DNA from: Acidobacteriota bacterium
GTDB taxonomy: Bacteria; Acidobacteriota; UBA4820; DSQY01
DNA length: 25,253 nt
Assembly: GCA_037443845.1 (NCBI GenBank)
Contig: JBBINO010000015.1
Span: forward strand, 12,575-37,827
Direction of reading: 5' to 3'
Numbering within the stretch: the first letter of the stretch is position 1; each line of letters begins with the position of its first letter. Shown here one piece after another: positions 1,182-25,213 of this stretch. A program made the translations under genes and the position numbers. The notes under the pieces were generated by a model. That model ran no database searches. It was not told where the DNA came from and saw nothing but the letters and a program-made list of their open reading frames with translations.

Positions 1182-1223
1182 TTAGTTCGCCAGGCGTCTG
1201 GCTTGGGGCGACGGGGTGAAATC

Positions 1224-3515
1224 ATGGCCGACGAGGCGCGCGAGTACAAGCTCCTCCTTGAGAACATCCTGGACGTAGTAGTCATTCTCGGGCGCGACGG
1301 CATCGTGCGCTACGTCAGCCCTTCGGCGCGGCGCCTCCTGGGGAGGGAGCCCTCCGAGCGGGAAGGACGAAGCGCCTTCGACTACATTCACCCCGACGAC
1401 ATACCGGCGGTCAAGGAGGTTTTCCGCCAGGCGCTCACGACGCAAGGGCCAATCGAGCCCGTGACGTTCAGGATGCGGCACAAGGATGGGCGCTACGTTT
1501 ACCTCGAAGCGGTCGGCAACAACAGGCTGGAAGACCCCGAGGTTCAAGGCGCCATAGTCGTCCTAAGGGACGTCACCACCCAGGAAACGGCGCTGAGGCA
1601 ATTGGCCGAGAGCGAGGAGAGATTCCGTAAGGTCGCGGAAACGGTCTCCGCCGCCATCATGATCCACCAGGACGGCCAATTCCGCTACGTCAACAGGCAC
1701 ACCGAATTGCTCACCGGCTACACTCAGGATGAGCTTCTCAAAATGAAGTTCTGGGAACTGGTCCATCCCGACCATATGGAGATGCTCAAGGAACGCGGGA
1801 CCGCCCGCCAGAAGGGCGACGCTGTCGTAAACCGTTACGAGTTCAAATATCTGACCAAGCGCGGCGAGACGCGCTGGCTCGACCTGTCCGGCGAACAGAT
1901 GGAATACGGCGGCAAGCCCGCCGCCCTGGCCATAGGCTTCGACGTGACCGACAGAAAGAAGACCGAGGAGGCGCTTCTCGAATCGGAGCTGAAGTTCCGG
2001 ACGCTCTTCGACAAGGCGCTCGACGGCATATTGATCGCCGACCACGAGACTCGCCGGTTCGTCATGGGCAACGGCGCGATATGCAAAATGCTCGGATGCA
2101 CCATCGAAGATTTGCTTGCGTTGAGCGTCGGTGACATCCACCCCCAGAGCGCCCTCCAGCACGTCGTCAACCAGTTTGAAAGACAGATGCGGGGCGAAAT
2201 CGCCATGGCGGAGGAGATCCCCGTCCTGAGAAAGGACGGCTCGATCTTCTTTGCCGACATCAATTCGAGCGCCATCCTCTTCGGCGGAAGACCCTGCTTG
2301 ATGGGCGTCTTCAGGGACATCACCGACCGAAAGCTCGCGGCCGAGGAGAGCAGAAGGGTGGCCATCCAGCTCCAACAGGCCCAGAAGATGGAAAGCCTCG
2401 GCGTGATGGCCGGGGGCATAGCTCACGACTTCAACAACCTCCTGGTGAGCGTCCTGGGCAACGCCGACATCGCGCTGAGGGACGCCTCCCTGCCGGCCAC
2501 GGCGCGCCACAGGCTCGAAGAGATCAGGACCGCCGCGGTGAGCGCGTCCGAGATGACGAGGCAGATGCTCGTCTGCGCCGGCCGTGGCCAGCTAGCCGTG
2601 AAGCCAATTGACCTCGGCGAGCTGGTCGAGGGTGTGTCGGGAGTGATGGAGGCTTCGATATCCAAGAAGGCGGCTCTCCGGTTTAATTTCCCGGAGGGGT
2701 TGCCGGCGGTGGAAGGCGACGCGGCGCAGTTGCGCCAGGTCGTCATGAACCTCGTAAGAAACGCGTCGGAGGCGATCGGGGACAAGAGCGGCATAATTTC
2801 CATCTCGGCGTCGCTCGTTTCGGCCGGCCCGGGGTTCTTTTCGGACGCGATCCTCGGGGAGGCTCTCGGCGCTGGCGAGTACGTCTGCCTCTCCGTTTCG
2901 GACACCGGCTCCGGCATGGAGCCCGCTGTTCTGCCGAAAATCTTCGAGCCTTTTTTCACCACTAGGTTCGCGGGCCGGGGGCTGGGGCTGGCCGTCGTTC
3001 TCGGAATCGTCAAGAGCCATCAGGGCGCCATCCGGGTCTTTTCGGAGCCCGGCCGCGGCAGCCGGTTCGATCTCTATTTCCCCGCAAGCCTTCGCGGCGC
3101 CGTGCGCGAGGAGGAGGCGGAGGAGCCTGGGCAGGCCGGGAAGGCTTCGTGGACCCTGCTTTGCGTCGAGGACGAAGCCGCCGTCAGGGAGGTCGAGGTC
3201 ACGATGCTTGAAGGCCTCGGGTTCAACGTGATAGCCGCCTCGACCGGGCAGGAGGCGCTGGCACTCTTTGGCGAGCGCAAGAGCGAGATCGGAGCCGTTC
3301 TGCTGGATTTCAACATGCCTGAGATGAACGGCGAGGACGTTTTCAGGGAACTGCGGCGTCTTGGTGAGTCGGTCCCGATCATCCTGGTCAGCGGCTATTC
3401 CGAAGCCGAGGTGAAGCAGCGCTTCAAGGAAGGCGAGCTGGCCGGTTTCCTGAAGAAGCCTTTCCGCCGCGCCGAACTCGTGACGGCCGTCATGAAAATC
3501 CTAGGGAAAAAGTGA
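1224..3515 (+). CDS. Hybrid sensor histidine kinase: three PAS domains, HisKA, HATPase_c and a C-terminal receiver domain.
   Basis: ATG at 1224 is preceded by GGGGTGA. The ORF track starts at an in-frame TTG at 1203. There are three PAS-like segments, each ending in a conserved DVTDRK / DITDRK motif. H-box IAHDFNNLL. ATP-lid motifs (DTGSGM, GLGL). REC segment LLCVEDEAAVREV...LLDFNMPEMNG...ILVSGY. Confidence 0.85.
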   Translation: MADEAREYKLLLENILDVVVILGRDGIVRYVSPSARRLLGREPSEREGRSAFDYIHPDDIPAVKEVFRQALTTQGPIEPVTFRMRHKDGRYVYLEAVGNNRLEDPEVQGAIVVLRDVTTQETALRQLAESEERFRKVAETVSAAIMIHQDGQFRYVNRHTELLTGYTQDELLKMKFWELVHPDHMEMLKERGTARQKGDAVVNRYEFKYLTKRGETRWLDLSGEQMEYGGKPAALAIGFDVTDRKKTEEALLESELKFRTLFDKALDGILIADHETRRFVMGNGAICKMLGCTIEDLLALSVGDIHPQSALQHVVNQFERQMRGEIAMAEEIPVLRKDGSIFFADINSSAILFGGRPCLMGVFRDITDRKLAAEESRRVAIQLQQAQKMESLGVMAGGIAHDFNNLLVSVLGNADIALRDASLPATARHRLEEIRTAAVSASEMTRQMLVCAGRGQLAVKPIDLGELVEGVSGVMEASISKKAALRFNFPEGLPAVEGDAAQLRQVVMNLVRNASEAIGDKSGIISISASLVSAGPGFFSDAILGEALGAGEYVCLSVSDTGSGMEPAVLPKIFEPFFTTRFAGRGLGLAVVLGIVKSHQGAIRVFSEPGRGSRFDLYFPASLRGAVREEEAEEPGQAGKASWTLLCVEDEAAVREVEVTMLEGLGFNVIAASTGQEALALFGERKSEIGAVLLDFNMPEMNGEDVFRELRRLGESVPIILVSGYSEAEVKQRFKEGELAGFLKKPFRRAELVTAVMKILGKK

Positions 3516-3530: not shown

Positions 3531-3590
3531 GAGAAGAATGTTCACCACAAAGGCCACAAAGGACACGAAGGGAAAGATAGAACCACAGAG
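3531..3590 (+). repeat. Dispersed repeat element R1, copy A (purine-rich, built from CACAAAGG / ACACGAAGG / CCACAGAG sub-repeats).
   Basis: Core AAGGACACGAAGGGAAAGATAGAACCACAGAG at 3559-3590 recurs nearly unchanged at 4068-4099 and 25182-25213. The 5' part GAAGAATGTTCACCACAAAGG matches 25155-25176. Confidence 0.7.
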
Positions 3591-3614
3591 GCGCCGAGGC
3601 ACGGAGGAGAAAAA

Positions 3615-3643
3615 GTGTTTGGTGTCTTGTGTCTGGTGTTTTG
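3615..3643 (+). repeat. GTGTNTN heptanucleotide tandem array of four units.
   Basis: GTGTTTG GTGTCTT GTGTCTG GTGTTTT G. Its reverse complement resembles the CAC-heptad array at 6766-6800. Confidence 0.6.
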
Positions 3644-3702
3644 TAGGCCCGGCGTTGATTTGATCCGCCCGTAGTCTCCAAGGTGCGCGGGCCACAGAGG
3701 GG

Positions 3703-3852
3703 CAAGGCCGATGGGCGCCCTCACTTCGTTCAGGCACGAATCCGCTTCCGAGCCGTCTCGAAGCGTTCATTCGCACGTCAGATTCGCTTGACGCTTCTCC
3801 CCGCATCGTTCAGCGGCTTCTGGCCAAGTTCCTTGGCCGCCCATCGGCCTTG
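3703..3852. repeat. 150-bp element bounded by perfect 15-bp terminal inverted repeats (MITE-like), or alternatively a structured RNA locus.
   Basis: CAAGGCCGATGGGCG at 3703-3717 and its exact reverse complement CGCCCATCGGCCTTG at 3838-3852. The interior contains nested short inverted repeats (GAAGCG...CGCTTC). The same 16-mer CAAGGCCGATGGGCGC recurs at 25123-25138. Confidence 0.5.
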
Positions 3853-4067
3853 ATTGCGCCCCCCCTACTCCCCCTTTGGGGGACGCCGGCGGCGTCGGAC
3901 CATCTGCTTTGTCAAACTTCGCGGTCCGAGGCCTCCGAGTACGAAAGTACGAGTCGGCCTCTGCCCGCTCGTTTTTCGCGCATCTGGCCCAACGGCGCCG
4001 GAACGCGCATTCCTCGCTTCGCTTCGGAATGCGGCCTGCGCCGCGCTTCTGAAAATGCTATTTTGGA

Positions 4068-4099
4068 AAGGACACGAAGGGAAGGATTGAACCACAGAG
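4068..4099 (+). repeat. Dispersed repeat element R1, copy B (core only).
   Basis: AAAGGACACGAAGGGAAGGATTGAACCACAGAG, near-identical to the 3559-3590 and 25182-25213 cores. It is followed by a CACTGAGGCGCAGAGGGAAG tail. Confidence 0.7.
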
Positions 4100-4256
4100 A
4101 CACTGAGGCGCAGAGGGAAGATTATAGTTGCGTTACATGCGCGAAGGTCACGGAGGAAAGGAAGCCTTCCTTGAAGTGCGTTCGCGTCGTTGGTTCGCGC
4201 CGCTCGTAGTTCGCTTGGTGCGCGGGCAACAGAGGCGCGAGCGGGATGCGGGAAGA

Positions 4257-4396
4257 GGTGAGACGTGAAAAGTGAGAGGTGAAAAGGCAAAGGGTGAAGC
4301 GTGAAGCGTGAGTGGTGGCGACGCTTAACCTCTTTACCCTTAACTCTTAACTTGTGAAGCGTGAGACGTGAGAAGTGAGACGTGAGAAGTGAGACG
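4257..4396. repeat. Heptanucleotide (GTGARRN) tandem arrays arranged as array, inverted array, array, forming a long imperfect palindrome.
   Basis: GTGAGAC GTGAAAA GTGAGAG GTGAAAAG ... GTGAAGC GTGAAGC GTGAG, then CTTAACC TCTTTAC CCTTAAC TCTTAAC (reverse-complement heptads), then GTGAAGC GTGAGAC GTGAGAA GTGAGAC GTGAGAA GTGAGAC. The same architecture recurs at 8231-8382 with about 85% identity over the inverted segment. Confidence 0.7.
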
Positions 4397-4531
4397 GCAG
4401 CCAAGAGACGCACGCTTGATGGACTGCTAGAAAGCAAGATTTGACCCCGCTCCTTTCCCTTCGCAGGCCAAAACGCATAAGTGACTCAGGGCCAGGGAGC
4501 GGGCGCGCTGCGTTGGCCTTCTCGCGGAGTT

Positions 4532-4999
4532 TTAGTCGGCCTGCCATGTGAGGTTGAAATCACAATGCTCCGCGGGGCGATATTTCGACTCGTACTCCGC
4601 GAATTGTGCGGCAAGCCAATGGTCTCCAGGGTTGCCGGTGTGCTTCACAATCACGAGAAAGTTAGGCGTTAGGCCTAGCCGATCGAGCGCCTGCAGAACG
4701 AATATGCCTTCTACAATGACGGGACAATTTGCCTCTAAGCGAGAGTTAAGAACCCAGCGGAGTTCGTTTTCTCGAAGATCGTAGCCCTGGCATGGGCGCT
4801 TGAGAAATGTGTCGAGTTCAATTGCTGGCATTGCGAGTTGCCATGCCAAATACCGGGCAACGGTTGTCTTGCCGACGCCATGGCGACCATCGACTGCAAC
4901 GATGAAACGACTCCAAGAGGGCAACGCATTCCAAACCGCGTCACGGAGCTCTCGGTACTTCGGCGTTTCAGGTCGCTCCGGTCTTGCTGCGATCATCAC
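4532..4999 (-). CDS. Small P-loop NTPase with a nucleoside/nucleotide-kinase-like Walker A (155 aa).
   Basis: Walker A IVAVDGRHGVGKTTVARYL and a Walker B-like PVIVEG. GTG start at 4999 (ATG at 4996) with AAGGAG 5 nt upstream. It lies in the low-GC segment. Confidence 0.7.
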   Translation of the reverse strand: MMIAARPERPETPKYRELRDAVWNALPSWSRFIVAVDGRHGVGKTTVARYLAWQLAMPAIELDTFLKRPCQGYDLRENELRWVLNSRLEANCPVIVEGIFVLQALDRLGLTPNFLVIVKHTGNPGDHWLAAQFAEYESKYRPAEHCDFNLTWQAD

Positions 5000-5142
5000 G
5001 TCAACTCCTTGCCGTTTACTTGACCCAGATATCTTTTGCGAAGGCTATCCGAGCAAGAAGGCCTCGAAGGCCATCTGTGCCGGAGCGTGATTGGGTCCAA
5101 TGCAACGAGCTGTTAGGCACTGGTGCTCTTTTAACAAAGGGC

Positions 5143-5697
5143 TTACCGATTGGCCAGTTCTTGGAACGCTGCCCACATGGTGGGAAGCACACAGTCAACG
5201 TGTAGTGCCAGCCTACTGAGACGTTCCATATCACTTTGGGCGGCGGCATGGTCAGACTCCGTGGTGCGAATCATTAAAGAAATCAAATTCCATCTTTCCT
5301 CGTGTTTACCTTCCTTTTCAAGCGCGGGCCATCGGGACCAGTTTCTAAGGAATTCTTGGAAATATGCGGAAGTATTGTTGAGAGAATCCTGGCGATTTGC
5401 AGAGGGGCCAAAGAAGTCCAGGGGACTTTCACCCGCAATGAATCTCGCTGCTTGTAGGCAGCCATCAAGCATGGGTTCTGGCTGAATGTGCTTCTTCTCG
5501 TCGTAAACAAGCGCTGCGCTCACAACAGCGCTAAAACAAAAGAGTAGGTAGCGATACCGTGAATCTGGTAGATCGAATTGAAGAGGCGCGGGTGCATCTT
5601 CTGCCCCGGGGATGGTATGTAGATAAAGATTGGTAGCAACTGTAGCAGCAGCCTTAACGTATTTCATCTGTGTTGGTTTACGGGAGAACCAGCTCAT
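5143..5697 (-). CDS. Hypothetical protein (184 aa) with no recognisable motif.
   Basis: ATG at 5697 with AGAGGGG RBS 7 nt upstream. It is co-oriented with the flanking genes in the low-GC segment. Confidence 0.55.
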   Translation of the reverse strand: MSWFSRKPTQMKYVKAAATVATNLYLHTIPGAEDAPAPLQFDLPDSRYRYLLFCFSAVVSAALVYDEKKHIQPEPMLDGCLQAARFIAGESPLDFFGPSANRQDSLNNTSAYFQEFLRNWSRWPALEKEGKHEERWNLISLMIRTTESDHAAAQSDMERLSRLALHVDCVLPTMWAAFQELANR

Positions 5698-5770
5698 TGC
5701 CTACCCCTCTTGAGTGCTGAAGACCCGACTCTACTATGGGTCGACATGCACCACCCGCGTTCTAGCCATG

Positions 5771-5833
5771 GGCGGCCTCCTTTCAGAGAATGGGCATTCC
5801 GAGTATGGCACAACGCCATACCCGGAGGCCGCC
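5771..5833 (-). promoter_or_regulatory. Intercistronic nested stem-loop between island genes 3 and 2.
   Basis: Perfect 10-bp inverted repeat GGCGGCCTCC (5771-5780) / GGAGGCCGCC (5824-5833) encloses an inner TATGGC-N5-GCCATA hairpin. On the transcribed strand the right arm contains GGAGG and precedes a mini-ORF ATG. Confidence 0.4.
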
Positions 5834-5844
5834 TCTATTGGCTG

Positions 5845-6528
5845 TTAGGCGAATCTCTTCGGAAGCCTTTCACGACAAGCCCCTAGATGATTGTGGATGA
5901 CCTTGTTGGCCGCTTTCGTGGAAAATCTATAAGACCTGTAGTTCGACGACGGTATTAAAAGGAGGAAATCGGTAATGCAAGCTTTCAAGATAGCAGTTTC
6001 CTCGTCAGTAATTCGATCAGTTACATAGTTGTAAAGGAGGCCCACCGTGAGTGGTAGCAAGACGAGATTAAAGCCCAAAGAAATCTGAAGGTCGCATTGC
6101 CAACAACCGCTTTTCTTGAACATGCCAAAGGTATATTGCCCGATTCCCTCAATAGAATCCACGTCACCCAGATCCTCAGCATAGATCGTCGGAGGAAGCA
6201 GGGGATACTTAAATTGGTCGTCAAAGGCCGACTTCTCCATTTTCGTAAACGTTCGGTATACTGCTTGTAAAATATCTGATGTGAGCTGATTTGGAGGGGC
6301 ATAGCTTTGGAGGTGGTCTGTGAGAACAGAGGCTACTGGCACAACATGGCGTTTCTCACATGCATAGAAGAACCTTGCGAGGAAAAGGACATAGGCAATC
6401 ACAAAGTGGAGCCCCTCATCTGCGACGGAATCGGCTTGGCATTTGAAAAATGCATACCCGTAACCATAGGTAATCTGGATACGTAATAGCGGCCTCTTGT
6501 ACAGCATGAAGCTCGGTGGCCATTTCAT
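5845..6528 (-). CDS. Hypothetical protein (227 aa). No family assignable by eye; hydrophobic central segment.
   Basis: ATG at 6528 with AAGGAGG RBS 7 nt upstream. It is the first gene of the three-gene low-GC module. Confidence 0.6.
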   Translation of the reverse strand: MKWPPSFMLYKRPLLRIQITYGYGYAFFKCQADSVADEGLHFVIAYVLFLARFFYACEKRHVVPVASVLTDHLQSYAPPNQLTSDILQAVYRTFTKMEKSAFDDQFKYPLLPPTIYAEDLGDVDSIEGIGQYTFGMFKKSGCWQCDLQISLGFNLVLLPLTVGLLYNYVTDRITDEETAILKACITDFLLLIPSSNYRSYRFSTKAANKVIHNHLGACRERLPKRFA

Positions 6529-6578
6529 CAGGTGACCTCCTTGCCAGGCAGTGCCCTAACGAATATCCGGCGTCAAGT

Positions 6579-6609
6579 GGTGACGCCAAAGCTTGGTGAC
6601 GTCAAAGCT
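6579..6609. promoter_or_regulatory. Tandem 15-bp direct repeats containing a perfect TGACGTCA palindrome, 50-80 nt upstream of island gene 3. Candidate regulator binding site.
   Basis: GGTGACGCCAAAGCT (6579-6593) and GGTGACGTCAAAGCT (6595-6609). A third related unit CTTGACGCC sits at 6571-6579. Confidence 0.3.
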
Positions 6610-6712
6610 GGCTACTGTTTTTGCGTATTATTTTACCGCTTCCTCTCTCATCCATCCAAGTTCAATGTAGCGCCCATCATCCGCGAAGTCAATGTCGAAC
6701 GTCTCCTAAACA

Positions 6713-6742
6713 CGGGCGGGGGGTAGGAACTGCCCCCGCCCG
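6713..6742. repeat. GC-homopolymer hairpin (10-bp stem, 10-nt loop) at the right edge of the low-GC segment.
   Basis: CGGGCGGGGG (6713-6722) pairs with CCCCCGCCCG (6733-6742). The same style of hairpin occurs at 22688-22719. Confidence 0.5.
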
Positions 6743-6765
6743 CAGCGTTCTTCATGCCGTCCTTT

Positions 6766-6800
6766 CACCAAACACTAAACACGAGACACCAAACACGAGG
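6766..6800 (+). repeat. CACNNNN heptanucleotide tandem array (reverse-complement orientation of the GTG heptad arrays).
   Basis: CACCAAA CACTAAA CACGAGA CACCAAA CACGAGG. About 18/20 identity to the reverse complement of 3615-3643. Confidence 0.6.
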
Positions 6801-6819
6801 CGCCCGCTCACGCGCAATC

Positions 6820-6899
6820 GGCATCTGGAGATGCCTCCTACAGGGGCGGGTTCGCCGTGACCGAACGGCCATCCTTTGTAGGAGGGTTCTCCAGAACCC
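6820..6899. repeat. Cluster of three consecutive short hairpins. Possible structured RNA or palindromic-element cluster.
   Basis: GGCATC-TGGA-GATGCC (6820-6835). CCTACA...TGTAGG (about 6837-6881). GGTTCT-CC-AGAACC (6886-6899). Confidence 0.35.
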
Positions 6900-6939
6900 G
6901 ATAGCGGCTGTCTTTCGCGCCGCGCGTGTCTTGCATCGT

Positions 6940-6990
6940 TCACTTCTCACGTCTCACTTCTCACTTCTCACTTTTCACTTCCTTCACGCC
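6940..6990 (-). repeat. GTGARRN heptad tandem array in minus orientation. It overlaps the last codons of the downstream gene.
   Basis: The plus strand reads CACTTCT CACGTCT CACTTCT CACTTCT CACTTTT CACTTCC TTCACGCC. Confidence 0.65.
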
Positions 6991-7688
6991 TTCGTGACGG
7001 GCGGCTTGGGGGTCCCAATGTCGCCGGTCGCGGGCGTGGCGCTTCCGCCGCCGTTCTTCTTGGCTTTGGCTGCGGGGCGGAAGAAGCTCTCGGCCTTTTT
7101 GGGGTTCTTGTAGTACATGTGGACGAGAGCGCGGTAGTCGAGCTTGTAGGCGTCGAACCAGTTGATCTTCTCCTGTTCGCAGAGGCCGTAGGCCTGAAGC
7201 TCGGCGTCGTGGGCGGCGCGGTGGGCGTCAACGGCGTGGGCGAGCGCGCCCGACGCGGCTGAAAGCGTTCCCGCGAATCCTTTCAGCTCGGCGTCCTCCT
7301 CTTCTCCAAGCTTGCTTACCAGGACGCTGACCTTCTGAAGCTCGGCCTCCAAGGGAGCGTTCACGACCGGCGTCATGCCATCTGGAAAATAGGTTAGCCA
7401 GAGCGGCGACTTCCGGTTGTTGCCGCACTTCGAGAGCACGGCGAGGCTGAAGCGGCGCACCACCTCGTCGAGCGCCTCGTCCTCCCCGTCGCGAACCGCC
7501 ATCGCGGTCATCGCCGCGGCCTGCGCCGCCTCGTGGGCCGCCACTCTTGCCGCCAGCCGGTCCTGGCACTTCTGCCACGCCCCGGCCATCTCCGAAAGCT
7601 CCCTCTCCGCTTTCAGCCTCGCCAAGTGGTAAAGTCCGTACTCCTTGAGCAACGTTGAAGCGCCTGTCGTCGGGTGTGGAACCTGCAT
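6984..7688 (-). CDS. Hypothetical protein (234 aa), Ala-rich with a Lys/Pro-rich C-terminal tail.
   Basis: ATG at 7688 with GGGAGGG RBS about 6 nt upstream. High-GC codon usage like the host genes. No motif I recognise. Confidence 0.55.
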   Translation of the reverse strand: MQVPHPTTGASTLLKEYGLYHLARLKAERELSEMAGAWQKCQDRLAARVAAHEAAQAAAMTAMAVRDGEDEALDEVVRRFSLAVLSKCGNNRKSPLWLTYFPDGMTPVVNAPLEAELQKVSVLVSKLGEEEDAELKGFAGTLSAASGALAHAVDAHRAAHDAELQAYGLCEQEKINWFDAYKLDYRALVHMYYKNPKKAESFFRPAAKAKKNGGGSATPATGDIGTPKPPVTKA

Positions 7689-7811
7689 GGTACCCTCCCT
7701 TCATTCCGCTGGAACATTGGGTTTTGGGCCTGCGGCCCGGGGAAGCGGGAGCCGGAGGGAGGCAGAACAGCCCCCGGGGCCCGCGAAACGGCGAAAACGG
7801 TCAAGAAAATC

Positions 7812-8046
7812 ATCTCGGAGGCTTGAGACGGGTAAACCAAGCGTTAAATTGCCTTCTCGAAGGTTCGAGACGCCGGTCCAACGCTTTGGATTGCCATCTC
7901 GAAGCCTTGAGACGGGAAAGATAAGCTTTGGGGAGCCGTCACGAAGGTTCGAGACGGAAAAACCAAGCTTTGGGGAGCCGTCACGAAGGTTCGAGACGGG
8001 AAAACTAAGCTTTTGGGAGCCATCCCGAAGCCCCGAGACGGCCTTC
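7812..8046. repeat. Tandem array of about six units of a 41-43 bp repeat (minisatellite-like), degenerating toward both ends.
   Basis: Units begin at about 7839, 7880, 7923, 7965 and 8007. Units 7923-7964 and 7965-8006 differ at roughly 3 positions (AAGCTTTGGGGAGCCGTCACGAAGGTTCGAGACGG(G)AAAAAC). The conserved core is TCGAAGGTTCGAGACGG. Confidence 0.7.
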
Positions 8047-8230
8047 CAAACGGTTTTCTCACCTTTTCTCGCCCCCCGAGGGCCAAAAACGGGCAAACTG
8101 CCCCCAAAACCGGCCCCGGAAACCCAAAGAGGAACAAAACGCGACATATCACGCCCCTCCGCTTCCCCACAGCCGAACCCCTCCAAGGTGCTAGAAAGGA
8201 AGTATACCACCGAAAGAAACCGGGCGGAAG

Positions 8231-8382
8231 ACGTGAAAAGTGAGACGTGAGACGTGAGAAGGTGAAGCGTGAAGGGTAAAGGGTAAAGCGTGAAGCGTAA
8301 AGGGTGAAGGGTAAAGCGTGAAGGGTAAAGGGTGAAGCGTGAGCGGTGGCGGCTCTTCACCTCTTCACTCTTAACTCTTCAC
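8231..8382. repeat. Second large GTGARRN heptad array (about 16 units) followed by an inverted heptad segment. Together they form an imperfect long palindrome.
   Basis: GACGTGAAAAGTGAGACGTGAGACGTGAGAAGGTGAAGCGTGAAGGGTAAAGGGTAAAGCGTGAAG..., then GAGCGGTGGCGGCTC, then CTTCACC TCTTCAC TCTTAAC TCTTCAC. Homologous to 4257-4396. Confidence 0.7.
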
Positions 8383-8495
8383 GGTCCAGGCATATCGTCC
8401 GGCGCGGCCATGTCCCGCTCTTAGGCCAGGATCCTAATTCGGGGCCACCCCGCCTCGCTTTGAATGGGCGCTTCGCCTTCATCCATCGTGCTTCA

Positions 8496-10583
8496 TCAGC
8501 TCTTCGTCAAATCTTTCAGCGGGTCCTGCGCTTTCTGCTTGCCGGTTGGTGTCTCTTGGGGCGCAGCGGCGATGAGCTTCGTGAAATAGGTGGAGAGCAG
8601 GCCGCCCAGGTTGTCTCCGCCCTGAACCAGCAAGTCCGGCGTCACCTTCACGTTGCCGGAGGCGATCTGCTTGGCGATCTCGATGGCCGTTACTCCCTGC
8701 TGGCCGATGGCCTTGTTCTGAAGCTCGTAGGCTTTGGCGGTCGCTTCGCCGATGGCTAGAATCTTCGACCCCTCGGCCTCGCCTTTCGCCCTGATTCCCT
8801 TCGCCTCGCCCTCCGCCCGAAGCCGCAGGCTCTCGCCCTCGCCTTCGGCGAAGCGTATCGCCTTCGCCTTGTTCTGCTCGGCGATCTTGACGCCGATTTC
8901 CGCCTCGACGAGGTTCTTCTGCTGGTCGGCCTCCGAACGCGTCTTCTCCATTGCTATGCGCGTCTGCTCCGCCTTCTGCTGGTCCTGGTACATGGCCTGC
9001 TGCTGCTGGGCGATGATCTTCTTCGTCTGCGTATCCATGAGTTCCTGAGGAAGGTTGATCTGGCAGATCAGGACCGAAACACATTCGACGTGGTATCTCT
9101 CGAGTTCCGCCTTCGCCCTCTCCTCGGCCTTGCGCTGCTCCTCCTGCCTGTCCTGCATGAAGTTCATGGCCGAGGTTGACGAGGCCTGGTTTCTGAACGA
9201 CGAATCTATCATCGGGTGGATGACGTGCAGGATCAGGTTTTCGATCGAGCCGATCTTCGCCACCATGTATGGAGCCTGGTCGGGCCTGACCCTGATAACG
9301 ACCTTTACCGAAACGCTAATCTGGAAGCCGTCCCTCGAAATGACTTTCAGCGGGTCGAAGCGCGTCTCCTTGCTGTCGTCCCAGTCGATCGTGATGTTTG
9401 TCGTGTCAACGATGTAGGCCATGTAGGCGCGCCGGTTAAGGTAGTAGAAGCCGGGGCCGATTACCTCCTGCTGGATGCCGCGAAAACCGTTTGGAACGAC
9501 GTAGCGCTCGATGCCTGGCACGACGCGCGACTCGGCGTTTCTCGCCTCCTCGTCGCCAGCCTCCTCTTTCGCCGCGAGCGCCGTAAGCTCTTTTATCTGC
9601 TTCGGCTCTTCTCCGACGTTCGAGACGACGACGGCGACCTGGCCCCTCTCCACGACCGCCACGTCGTCAAGCTCGGCCTTGAACAGAAGGGGGTTGATGT
9701 AGTAGGTGCCCGGCTTCAGGACGTCGAACTGCGGGCCGCGCTGGCCCTTCGACTCCAGGAAGGCGGCTGCCGCCTGATAATCGCTGTGTCCGGCCACTGG
9801 GGTCGCCACGTACTCCTTTTCTGGAAGAGGCTCGCCGTCGAGCGCCGTGACGAGGCCCACCTTCATCGCCGGCACTATCGTCGCTTCGCGGATTTCCACG
9901 TGGAAGAGGTCGGTATTGATGCGGTAAGTGCCCGGAAGAAGGATGTCTATCTGAGGCCCCTTCTGCCCGCCGTTGTTCAGAAAGGCCTGGCCGTCCTCGA
10001 AGTTGCTGTGGCCATCAACGCGAGAAGCAAGCAGCCTTCCCGGAGGGATCGGCTGGCCGTCCATGCTTGTTACGGTGCCTATCCTGCCCTTGTCTATTAT
10101 GACCGAAGGAACCTTGCGGACCCTGAACAGTACGGGGTTTATCCTGTACTGGCCCGGGGGCAGCATCTGGGTCTGCGGCCCTTTTTCGCCGCTATTCTTG
10201 AGGAAGTTCTCCCCGTCCTGAAAGCTGTTGTGGCCGGAGACGACCTTCGCGAAAATTTTCCCCGGCGGAATGGAGAAACCGTCTATTGATTCGAGAAGCC
10301 CGACTTCATCTTCCGCGATCATCGTGAATGGATATTTCGTCACCGAAAAGAGAAAAGGAATCAGCAGATGGAGGCCCGGTCCCAGCGTTTTCGCCTGGAT
10401 GCCGACCTCCCCGGCCAAGGCCACCACGCGGCCCTGCGGCATCTGCCTGCCAAGGTATTTTCTTTCAAGAACGGCGATCTGCGTGCCGCCGACGATGACG
10501 ACGGAGTTGTAAAGCAGCAACAGAGCGACCAAACCGCCCGCGTAAGGCCATGCCACGTTTACGAAATGAAGAAAACTTTCCAT
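8496..10583 (-). CDS. SPFH/Band-7 (flotillin/YqiK-like) family protein with an N-terminal TM segment, about 3.5 internal repeats of roughly 75 aa, and a C-terminal coiled-coil plus flotillin-type tail.
   Basis: ATG at 10583 preceded by GAGGAGGGAGAG. The ORF track extends to 10640, but that start has no RBS. N-terminal hydrophobic WPYAGGLVALLLLY. Repeats carry GH..F.DG..FL...G.KGPQ...L.PG.YRIN..LF.V. SPFH core ISRDGFQISVSVKVVIRV. EA-rich coiled-coil and AIRFAEGEGE...KGEAEG tail. Confidence 0.8.
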   Translation of the reverse strand: MESFLHFVNVAWPYAGGLVALLLLYNSVVIVGGTQIAVLERKYLGRQMPQGRVVALAGEVGIQAKTLGPGLHLLIPFLFSVTKYPFTMIAEDEVGLLESIDGFSIPPGKIFAKVVSGHNSFQDGENFLKNSGEKGPQTQMLPPGQYRINPVLFRVRKVPSVIIDKGRIGTVTSMDGQPIPPGRLLASRVDGHSNFEDGQAFLNNGGQKGPQIDILLPGTYRINTDLFHVEIREATIVPAMKVGLVTALDGEPLPEKEYVATPVAGHSDYQAAAAFLESKGQRGPQFDVLKPGTYYINPLLFKAELDDVAVVERGQVAVVVSNVGEEPKQIKELTALAAKEEAGDEEARNAESRVVPGIERYVVPNGFRGIQQEVIGPGFYYLNRRAYMAYIVDTTNITIDWDDSKETRFDPLKVISRDGFQISVSVKVVIRVRPDQAPYMVAKIGSIENLILHVIHPMIDSSFRNQASSTSAMNFMQDRQEEQRKAEERAKAELERYHVECVSVLICQINLPQELMDTQTKKIIAQQQQAMYQDQQKAEQTRIAMEKTRSEADQQKNLVEAEIGVKIAEQNKAKAIRFAEGEGESLRLRAEGEAKGIRAKGEAEGSKILAIGEATAKAYELQNKAIGQQGVTAIEIAKQIASGNVKVTPDLLVQGGDNLGGLLSTYFTKLIAAAPQETPTGKQKAQDPLKDLTKS

Positions 10584-10670
10584 CTCTCCCTCCTCGCCAA
10601 CAACGGGCGGCGCCGCGGCCGGCACCTGCCGAAAACCCAAGCGGCCGCTTTGCCTAGAATCCTACCACCC

Positions 10671-25122: not shown

Positions 25123-25213
25123 CAAGGCCGATGGGCGCGCCGCTTCGCGGCGCGAAAGAAATTCTCACCACAAAGGACACCAAGGACACGAAGGGAAGGA
25201 TTGAACCACAGAG
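25123..25213 (+). repeat. Composite repeat: a copy of the 16-mer CAAGGCCGATGGGCGC, then a GCGCCGC-TTC-GCGGCGC hairpin, then R1 copy C.
   Basis: 25123-25138 matches 3703-3718. 25155-25213 matches R1 at 3531-3590 and 4068-4099. Confidence 0.65.

Follow-up and report, generated by a model that had tools for sequence, protein, structure and literature searches.

The heptad arrays in this stretch of DNA are heptanucleotide SSRs, members of a class that has already been described in many bacteria and is over-represented in non-coding DNA. They are probably polar, purine-rich tracts (with far more G than C) that slippage has generated at the ends of genes, where they may serve as hairpins or insulators. 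The whole stretch of 25,253 nucleotides is referred to as the window in this text. An earlier note had described strict 7-bp arrays anchored on GTG or CAC at five sites, and this description stands with slightly refined coordinates. Its statement that no described family matches them is wrong at the class level, because GGGAATC, GGGGAYT, STRR, TAACTGA and the Geobacter sites are known.

Heptanucleotide arrays in the window

TRF and a phase scan showed that the arrays in the window consist of exact 7-nt head-to-tail units, 4 to 16 per array:

3615–3642, plus strand: GTGTNTN array, 4 units (GTGTTTG GTGTCTT GTGTCTG GTGTTTT)
4258–4285 and 4294–4321, plus strand: GTGARRN array, 4 + 4 units with a 1-nt phase slip between them
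4324–4352, minus strand: reverse-complement heptad block, CTTAACN/CTTTACN x4 on the plus strand
4354–4396, plus strand: GTGAGAC/GTGAGAA array, 6 units, 14-mer periodicity of 100%
6762–6796, minus strand: GTGTTTN array, 5 units, CACNNNN on the plus strand
6937–6978, minus strand: GTGAGAA-type array, 6 in-phase units, 2 bases apart from a GTGAAGG unit at 6981–6987
8229–8345, plus strand: longest array, 16 units of GTGARRN/GTAAAGN, 4 (8233–8260) + 12 (8262–8345)
8353–8382, minus strand: reverse-complement heptad block, CTCTTCAC-type x4 on the plus strand

Runs of at least four GTG units at exact 7-nt spacing occur eight times in the window and in none of 50 shuffles. The phase scan detected no further GTG-anchored period-7 run in the remaining 17 kb of the window, and TRF reported a single weak period-7 row (4.1 copies, 4254–4282) that overlaps the array at 4258. 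The longest array starts with GTGAAAA and GTGAGAC and continues with GTGAAGC, GTGAAGG, GTAAAGG and GTAAAGC; it displays super-periods of 14, 21 and 28 nt and a single 1-nt slip at 8261. The array at 4354–4396 is complementary to 6940–6978 at 92%. A CRISPR array was considered and rejected, since the 7-mers are contiguous and have no spacers, whereas CRISPR repeats are about 24–48 nt long and alternate with unique spacers.

Position and polarity relative to genes

All arrays in the window lie outside credible genes. To this extent they are intergenic, as had been claimed, but the GTGAAGG unit at 6981–6987 contains the stop codon of ORF 6984–7688. The TGA (6986–6984) of this 234-aa ORF on the minus strand sits within the unit (read 6987–6981), so that the array 6937–6987 begins inside the stop codon. 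It is the only array in the window that abuts one. The array at 3615–3642 lies 100 nt past the stop of a PAS-histidine kinase gene (1203–3515, plus strand), with its G/T-rich strand as the sense strand of that gene, and the purine strand of block 8353–8382 is the sense strand of an SPFH gene (8496–10640, minus strand) whose stop is 114 nt away. The array at 6762–6796 has the 234-aa gene upstream and the low-GC operon downstream. The last low-GC gene (4532–4999, minus strand) has its stop 136 nt before a further array (4354–4396), which is antisense to the nearest gene end. Five of the six window arrays point outward from a neighbouring gene.

Three ORFs that cross arrays (3865–4437, 7701–8360 and 7645–8250) have no Pfam matches. 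They are spurious and exist solely because the pyrimidine strand of the arrays is open in all frames; the arrays therefore explain the long ORFs 3865–4437 and 7701–8360. The 234-aa protein is predicted to form a long helical bundle (pLDDT 86), and its predicted fold has no significant match among solved structures (best Foldseek E = 0.4).

The same polarity was found in 120 listed genome loci with GTGARRN arrays, in which genes were called by a crude longest-ORF procedure. For the 63 arrays with an upstream gene on the same strand, the median distance from stop to array was 4 nt, compared with 94 nt from array to next gene (52 vs 7, p = 1e-9). The array started no more than 15 nt from the upstream stop in 47 of the 63, and in 25 cases the stop codon fell within array units 1–3, often being the array's own TGA. 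Among arrays at most 20 nt from the 3' end of a gene, 49 were sense and 11 antisense (p = 8e-7), the purine strand being the sense strand of the upstream gene. This strand is closed in all frames across the 120 loci, and the flanking ORFs are real genes. The 61 neighbour genes are unrelated housekeeping genes: they contain 105 Pfam families, none of which occurs in more than two members.

Paired arrays form hairpins

In two blocks (4277–4352 and 8289–8383) a forward array faces a reverse-complement array, and each folds into an imperfect hairpin. In the first block, the array 4258–4321 provides the 5' arm and 4324–4352 the 3' arm, which faces 4290–4321 across the loop GTGAGTGGTGGCGACG. In the second, the 3' part of the array 8229–8345 is the 5' arm and 8353–8382 the 3' arm. 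Folding of 4254–4400 gave -29 kcal/mol (z -4.0) for the minus strand and only z -1.2 for the plus strand, and folding of 8240–8385 gave -47.3 and -32.4 kcal/mol (z -3.2 and -3.9). These values bear out the earlier suggestion of two long imperfect hairpins. Structured RNA, which had also been proposed, or structured DNA is supported for the paired blocks only; the unpaired arrays (6930–6995 and 3610–3650) yielded no structure on folding. A scan for the terminator consensus flagged neither paired block, and no clear U-tract follows the hairpins; long stems are present.

The segments 4277–4351 and 8308–8382 are 80% identical over 75 nt in direct orientation, including the non-repeat loop GGTGGCGRC, and the paired blocks stand on either side of a 4-kb variable segment. 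Pairing is directional in the other loci as well. A reverse-complement partner array lies downstream in 22 of 114 cases and upstream in one (22 convergent vs 1 divergent), and most of these pairs fold with z of -5 to -12. In four loci (L080, L097, L105 and L106), the partner arrays have only the GTGA core in common and are not fully complementary.

A REPIN-like true hairpin was also noticed at 6809–6906, between two arrays of the window.

Distribution in other genomes and viruses

The earlier note had recommended a search for the same heptads in related genomes. Four consecutive GTGARRN units were found in at least 120 genome stretches from most bacterial phyla, where about one chance match is expected. 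The hosts include Gemmataceae, Pirellulales, Prevotella, Saprospiraceae, Nitrospirota, Gemmatimonadota and Betaproteobacteria, as well as Desulfonema, Chloroflexota, Acidobacteriota, cyanobacteria, Bacillota and others. At least 120 viral contigs also carry such arrays. However, composition-matched permuted heptads are almost equally common in viral contigs (82, 90 and at least 120 stretches vs at least 120 for GTGA), so GTG is not the mark of a family of its own, contrary to the earlier note. The other tandem repeats in the 120 listed loci lead to the same view: 98 have a period of 7, 33 of 8, 14 of 9 and 3 of 6, and the 98 further period-7 arrays comprise many different units.

Array turnover in relatives

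Both arrays that follow the 234-aa gene are kept in the related locus L134, with changes in units and copy number. For example, the GTGTTTN x5 array at 6762–6796 has a GTGACTN x5 array as its positional orthologue in L134, the change being concerted over the same five units, and the counterpart of 6937–6987 follows the same stop. The GTG anchor is kept between the two loci while positions 4–5 are altered in concert, and the hairpin between the two arrays is 82% conserved. Relatives of the window mix arrays of 7, 8 and 9 nt, and the number of copies of an 8-mer array differs between L135 and L136 (4 vs 5).

Several breakpoints coincide with arrays; they are a handful of cases, with no control. 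The sequences of L140 and L142 part within the first heptads, L140 lacks a 380-nt segment between stop and hairpin, and an island in L123 has (CTTCAGC)n on both flanks. This anecdotal evidence goes some way towards the recombination hotspot that the earlier note had considered.

The position-specific conservation of GTGA within arrays, together with the retention of the GTG anchor in orthologues, exceeds what pure neutral slippage would give and could reflect a binding factor.

Comparison with known repeats

The STRR of cyanobacteria are heptanucleotide tandem repeats. A class of heptameric intergenic SSRs was reportedly noted by Mrazek in 2007. Rehm et al. 2015 (PMC4692102) characterised the heptameric intergenic repeats GGGAATC in Xanthomonas and GGGGA(C/T)T in Nostoc and give a slippage hypothesis for heptamers. 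There are 70–75 convergent plus/minus pairs per genome that are able to form stem-loops; the repeats are rare between divergent genes, their neighbours have no functional theme, and their length and sequence differ between close relatives. The present arrays share with them the exact 7-nt tandem units, one G-rich strand and a strong intergenic bias. The hallmarks of heptameric SSRs are all found here: units of 7 nt, a non-coding site, convergent pairs, and variation in length and sequence. A G-rich coding strand no more than 50 bp from the upstream stop, or overlapping it, is found as well, in the window at 6937–6987; the other sense arrays are 100–114 nt away.

There are also differences. G-quadruplex formation is an emphasised property of the GGGAATC and GGGGAYT repeats (PMC4692102). 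In contrast, the present units (GTGARRN, GTGTNTN) lack G-tracts and are unable to form G-quadruplexes: apart from sporadic unit joins, GTGARRN, GTAAAGN and GTGTNTN contain no GGG, whereas the quadruplex criterion asks for at least four tracts of at least three G. Moreover, the GTGA units close every frame with a stop codon, and they are distributed over most bacterial phyla and viral contigs instead of two lineages.

TAACTGA direct repeats are found in Beggiatoaceae, cyanobacteria and Bacteroidetes, mostly just upstream of start codons, with one indirect repeat noted (PMC4679880). Like STRR, they resemble our arrays as non-coding tandem heptamers with many copies per genome that occur in distant phyla with no evident transfer mechanism. 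TAACTGA differs in its site upstream of starts and in its unrelated unit sequence. The 'global regulator binding sites' of Geobacter metallireducens consist of 4–5 hepta- or octanucleotides in tandem, most of them arranged as inverted pairs (PMC2700814). They too have tandem units of 7–8 nt, paired on opposite strands at many intergenic sites, but their consensus sequences are MTYCTGA, GTTGCTYN and GGACCGG, and the regulator role is a prediction. REP, BIME and REPIN elements likewise occur in many copies between genes, often on the 3' side, and form hairpins. However, REPs are palindromes of fixed, imperfect form that carry a GTAG head and are mobilised by RAYT transposases, not short-period tandem arrays.

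The omega protein of pSM19035, a ribbon-helix-helix protein, has operators and parS sites made of direct and inverted runs of WATCACW heptads (PMC9499535). These are contiguous 7-bp units in both orientations, and their core ATCAC/GTGAT resembles GTGA(R). Omega sites are plasmid promoter and centromere elements next to the omega and delta genes, whereas our arrays lie on chromosomes, are linked to stop codons and have unrelated genes as neighbours. An omega-type operator or parS was rejected: the core is GTGA(A/G) and not GTGAT, the arrays follow stops, and no ribbon-helix-helix or ParA protein was found among the window ORFs or the 61 neighbour genes of the other loci.

Origin of the arrays and alternative explanations

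Replication slippage or unequal exchange would create and homogenise the arrays. Such a process accounts for the strict 7-nt period, the super-periods of 14, 21 and 28 nt, the 1-nt slips, the differences in copy number and the concerted unit changes. It is rather unlikely that the heptads are tandem sites of a sequence-specific protein, with one subunit or dimer per 7 bp, either of the omega type or a single-strand binder with a footprint of 6–7 nt such as a cold-shock-domain protein. The strict phasing, the conserved GTGA core with variable positions 5–7, and the direct and inverted arrangements would suit such a protein, as would the four pairs of partner arrays that have the core alone in common and the orthologues in which the anchor outlasts the concerted shifts. 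There are precedents in the omega heptads (PMC9499535) and in the cold-shock, S1 and CsrA proteins proposed for the TAACTGA repeats (PMC4679880). However, no gene recurs among the 61 neighbours of the arrays, and the adjacent 234-aa protein has no significant fold match, so that the earlier proposal of protein-binding arrays finds no support in the local gene content, although a factor acting in trans is conceivable. The near-equal frequency of permuted heptads, the occurrence of arrays with many different units in almost every phylum, and a polarity that follows stop codons and not promoters also argue against it.

The identity of the two paired blocks, loop included, and their direct orientation around the variable segment could suggest a non-autonomous foldback or MITE-like element with heptad terminal inverted repeats, inserted at 4277–4352 and 8308–8382. 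Hairpins of a similar kind are also present behind the orthologous gene of L134 and L140. Nevertheless, we regard such an element as very improbable: the blocks show no target-site duplication, the ORFs covered by the Pfam scan include neither a transposase nor RAYT, and the loop motif is absent from the 139 loci searched and from the metagenome collection. Loops and arm lengths vary freely between loci, and the arms grade into long one-sided arrays (8229–8345), which is unexpected of a transposon end. Assembly artefacts, i.e. collapsed or chimeric low-complexity joins, can be dismissed with near certainty, even though assemblies do break here. A Logan contig (L122) from an independent assembly of run SRR11582168 matches 4419–6774 of the window with 0 mismatches and ends at arrays on both sides, and many of the at least 120 genome matches lie at contig ends; this leaves the copy numbers obtained from short reads uncertain, and the arrays explain the fragmented assembly of this locus and its relatives. 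But assemblies of other samples (L134, L140 and L157) have arrays at the same place behind the orthologous gene, arrays of the same kind lie inside complete chromosomes (Parabacteroides sp. ASD2025, Luteimonas sp. R10, Desulfonema magnum and Methylotuvimicrobium sp. KM1), and the imperfect, position-specific variation of the units is unlike a collapsed repeat.

Possible roles at gene ends

In the 120 loci, and in five of the six window arrays, the arrays are polar: the G-rich strand reads outward from the neighbouring gene. In the loci it typically starts at the stop or a few bases from it, and 21 nt of GTGA units hold a TGA for each of the three frames. Where arrays anchored on the two sides meet, the resulting convergent 5'-GTGARRN...NYYTCAC-3' pairs into a long hairpin that tolerates register shifts and may act as a REP-like 3' stem-loop, a terminator or an insulator. 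With a single array, the outgoing transcript would contain an unstructured tract poor in C, and any incoming or antisense transcript one rich in C and poor in G. Rho-type termination would then act preferentially on transcription that enters the gene. Cyanobacteria, which are not known to have Rho, carry many polar heptamer arrays, so that this idea cannot be general.

As blocks of microhomology, the arrays may also be preferred endpoints of indels and insertions. This would explain why they bracket the variable low-GC module and the hypothetical gene. They lie at the borders of a variable segment that was probably acquired horizontally.

A pan-bacterial, orientation-dependent gene-boundary signal, as opposed to neutral slippage debris, is an unlikely though conceivable reading. 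Its elements would be the outward start at the stop codon, the stops in all frames, the C-rich tract as a loading site on incoming or antisense transcripts, and the hairpin of paired arrays. It would imply a common factor or constraint, for example a protein of termination, recycling or RNA binding with a 7-nt footprint. Since the same polarity occurs with non-quadruplex units, the quadruplex explanation of the Xanthomonas and Nostoc repeats would then not be general.

The stop-anchored polarity and convergent pairing of G-quadruplex-type heptamers extend to non-quadruplex units across most phyla, and the bacterial excess of heptamers therefore looks like one general phenomenon.

Structure and context of the heptad arrays

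The strict 7-nt periodic arrays described in an earlier note were confirmed, well beyond chance, by reading of the sequence, Tandem Repeats Finder and a phase scan. The phase scan counted eight runs in the window in which four or more GTG units are spaced by 7 nt, as compared with none in 50 shuffles, and gave no further run of that kind in the rest of the 25-kb window.

Heptad arrays and reverse-complement blocks in the window
3615-3642, plus strand: GTGTNTN, four units (reading, Tandem Repeats Finder, phase scan)
4258-4285 and 4294-4321, plus strand: GTGARRN, four and four units with a 1-nt slip between them
4324-4352: short reverse-complement block
4354-4396: GTGAGAC/GTGAGAA, six units
6762-6796, minus strand: GTGTTTN, five units
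6937-6978, minus strand: heptad array, plus a GTGAAGG unit at 6981-6987
8233-8260 and 8262-8345: four and 12 units
8353-8382: short reverse-complement block

The blocks at 4277-4351 and 8308-8382, loop GGTGGCGRC included, share 80% identity. The same note had proposed that a forward array and the reverse-complement array facing it can fold, which we could reproduce: the paired blocks form imperfect hairpins (z of -3.2 to -4.0 in three of four strand folds). Unpaired arrays of the window are unstructured on folding. G-quadruplexes were rejected as a candidate, being impossible for the window's heptad units. Scans of the window with Rfam (gathering thresholds) and for tRNAs gave no match.

The arrays occupy a 5-kb gap between the convergent genes of a PAS histidine kinase (1203-3515, plus strand) and an SPFH protein (8496-10640, minus strand). 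A low-GC module in this gap (4532-6528, 47-52% GC versus about 62% in the flanking genes) comprises three orphan minus-strand genes of 227, 184 and 155 aa. Pfam, PADLOC and NCBIfam yielded no informative match for them; the last gene's 155-aa product alone showed a P-loop kinase signal, and a weak one. In an independent assembly, the module is a separate 2.36-kb contig, consistent with recent acquisition.

The neighboring hypothetical 234-aa ORF (6984-7688, minus strand), likewise in the gap, uses the TGA within a GTGAAGG heptad as its stop codon, and the array at 6937-6987 thus begins inside that codon. With a 7-nt period, GTGA units supply a TGA once per 21 nt in each of the three frames. 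The strand complementary to GTGA arrays is open in all frames and gives rise to the spurious ORFs 3865-4437 and 7701-8360.

Array turnover beside the 234-aa gene

The 234-aa protein has 43 homologues, most of them encoded on very short contigs; the named ones are proteins of Acidobacteriota MAGs with 53-62% identity. Neither Pfam, PADLOC nor NCBIfam gave an informative match. Structure prediction gives a confident helical bundle, to which no PDB entry is significantly similar and, as this model matches no DNA-binding fold, the protein was dropped as evidence for a DNA binder. The gene family (the window and loci L123, L131, L134 and L138) is found in variable, defence-island-like settings (N6_N4 methylase, KAP NTPase, Mrr_cat, caspase-kinase, putAbiC). 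The downstream "cargo" differs per genome and is the low-GC three-gene module in the window.

Upstream of the gene we noticed a 42-bp tandem repeat (7813-8041, 5.5 copies), present in the family in 3-7 copies 100-150 bp upstream (L134 207-452, L135 4174-4331, L138 2681-2880, L140 1-156, L154 3619-3904, L156 227-442, L157 651-833). Each unit contains an inverted repeat, e.g. TCTCGAAGGTTCGAGA. Period and position are kept across the family, while the unit sequence has almost completely diverged. This looks like a putative co-evolving operator or iteron array.

In L134, an assembly from another sample (79% amino-acid identity), the stop codon is followed by a heptad array, a REPIN-like hairpin and a second heptad array, in the same order as in the window. 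The first arrays differ in units and length; the second ones both have five units and the GTG anchor, with positions 4-5 altered in concert (GTGTTTN to GTGACTN). In the assembly L140, which is 90% identical to L134 in nucleotides across the gene, a convergent hairpin of heptads lies 10 nt past the stop codon and the 380-nt intervening segment is missing. L142 equals L140 through the first heptads and consists of unrelated DNA thereafter. Between L135 and L136, an 8-mer array differs in length by one unit, and L123 carries an 11-kb defence-like island with (CTTCAGC)n on both flanks. From the comparisons of L134 to L142 and from L123, we therefore conclude that the arrays stay in place, turn over fast and coincide with endpoints of rearrangements. 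In more distant orthologues, the stop codon is followed by GC-rich hairpins of the ordinary kind rather than by heptads.

The window's REPIN-like hairpin (6809-6906) is 100 nt long and near-perfect (-56 to -59 kcal/mol, z about -6). It consists of two inverted units with a GTAG head, each beginning TGTAGGAGG followed by a small palindrome; it is 82% conserved at L134 1415-1507, and L135 has a related motif. The hairpin at 4258-4396 was also compared with that of L134, since orthology of the two would give a date for the low-GC insertion; this idea was discarded, as there was no sequence match beyond the heptads.

Placement relative to genes

Placement was analyzed in 120 loci among the GTGARRNx4 genome matches listed, with genes taken as crude longest-ORF calls and arrays masked; all counts in this section, other than that for the window arrays, refer to these listed matches. 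An upstream gene on the strand of the purine strand was found for 63 arrays. The stop codon lay inside array unit 1, 2 or 3 in 25 of the 63; in about 20 others it preceded the array by no more than 14 nt, frequently within a degenerate edge unit. Among the 25 cases there was no preference for the first heptad (13, 6 and 6, not significantly different from uniform). Stop codon and array were a median of 4 nt apart, as compared with 94 nt between the array and the gene that follows (52 versus 7, p = 1e-9), and arrays within 20 nt of a gene's 3' end were sense in 49 cases and antisense in 11.

A reverse-complement array followed the purine array within 120 nt downstream in 22 of 114 cases and preceded it in one, hence the arrangement 5'-GTGARRN...NYYTCAC-3'. 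Most paired arrays fold into long hairpins (z between -5 and -12), and a few have the GTGA core alone in common. One rule covers both polarity and pairing: the G-rich strand is directed outward from the nearest gene. Five of the six window arrays conform, the exception being 4354-4396.

The 61 genes ending at arrays matched 105 Pfam families (ALAD, ATP synthase, FliP, TrpA, TrkH and others), each in at most two members. The array-flanking ORFs are real, and there is no associated partner gene among these 61.

Distribution and known repeat classes

In the species-representative genome set, at least 120 stretches carry GTGARRNx4, with about one expected by chance, and at least 120 viral contigs match it as well; the genome matches listed are spread over most bacterial phyla. 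Heptads permuted at constant composition were also frequent in the viral contigs (GAGTRRN, at least 120 stretches; TGGARRN, 90; GGTARRN, 82), and the GTG anchor is not special. In 854 kb around the listed genome matches, period 7 dominated the non-seed tandem repeats (98 arrays, with very diverse units), as compared with 33 arrays at period 8, 14 at period 9 and three at period 6.

The suggestion that the pattern matches no described family has to be withdrawn, as a class of heptameric repeats is already in the literature (PMC4692102, PMC4679880, PMC2700814). Among bacterial SSRs, heptamers are over-represented, as stated by Rehm et al. 2015 (PMC4692102) with reference to Mrazek 2007. GGGAATC and GGGGAYT lie upstream of genes on the non-coding strand, form 70-75 convergent inverted pairs per genome, are scarce between divergent genes and vary between close relatives; their neighbor genes share no functional theme and no function is established (PMC4692102). 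These reported features recur in the window arrays, which are members of the known class. Further members are the TAACTGA repeats (PMC4679880) and the paired hepta- and octanucleotide sites of Geobacter (PMC2700814). Modestly new are the breadth of distribution and the combination of polarity and convergent pairing without quadruplex potential.

Origin and possible function

The arrays show super-periods and phase slips, change in copy number and evolve in concert, all of which supports an origin by slippage. According to a hypothesis quoted in PMC4692102, 7 nt corresponds to the footprint of the polymerase active site, favouring slippage. Paired arrays could act as 3' stem-loops whose pairing tolerates register shifts, and single arrays might leave outgoing RNA with a C-poor tract and incoming RNA with a C-rich one. 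Every array would offer microhomology for rearrangement.

Alternatively, the heptads could be tandem sites for a sequence-specific protein. The best precedent at 7-bp pitch is the omega heptads of pSM19035 (PMC9499535), beyond which a literature search for the exact heptamers returned nothing relevant. GTGA is conserved and some partner arrays match in the core only, as binding sites might; however, no local partner gene is present, and the adjacent 234-aa protein is a predicted helical bundle without a DNA-binding fold match. We consider this reading improbable. That the paired blocks are MITE copies is very unlikely, because neither a duplication nor further copies were found; the hairpin loop motif had no match in the loci compared or in metagenome contigs.

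The arrays clearly hinder assembly. A Logan contig of SRR11582168 covers window 4419-6774 without mismatch and ends at arrays on both sides, as would be expected if they were assembly artefacts. Such an explanation is nevertheless scarcely conceivable, given the same array positions in assemblies from other samples and arrays of the same kind inside complete chromosomes.

Related short repeats

In relatives of the window, purine-rich arrays of 7, 8 and 9 nt are intermixed. The window itself has purine-rich 8-9-nt tandem units (CCACAAAGG, ACACGAAGG, CCACAGAGG, CACGGAGG) after gene ends at 3545-3607, 4067-4116 and 25169-25194, which are probably the same phenomenon as the heptads with a different period. 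Similar 9-mers occur in L123, L138, L156 and the Anaerolineae contig L006. The composite intergenic segments 3558-3713 and 4067-4248, about 510-535 bp apart, share sub-blocks of 86% (50 nt) and 73% (64 nt) identity, thus suggesting a duplicated mosaic of short repeats.

In three loci from Prevotella/Prevotellaceae MAGs (L072, L075, L119), GTGAAGA/GTGAAAA arrays are followed by a common motif, ATTTGCTGCCGC (ATTTGCTACCGC in L075), which may represent a terminator element particular to this lineage and set within heptads. In L119, the motif is the inner palindrome of a hairpin of very high stability (z of -11.9) followed by a T-run.
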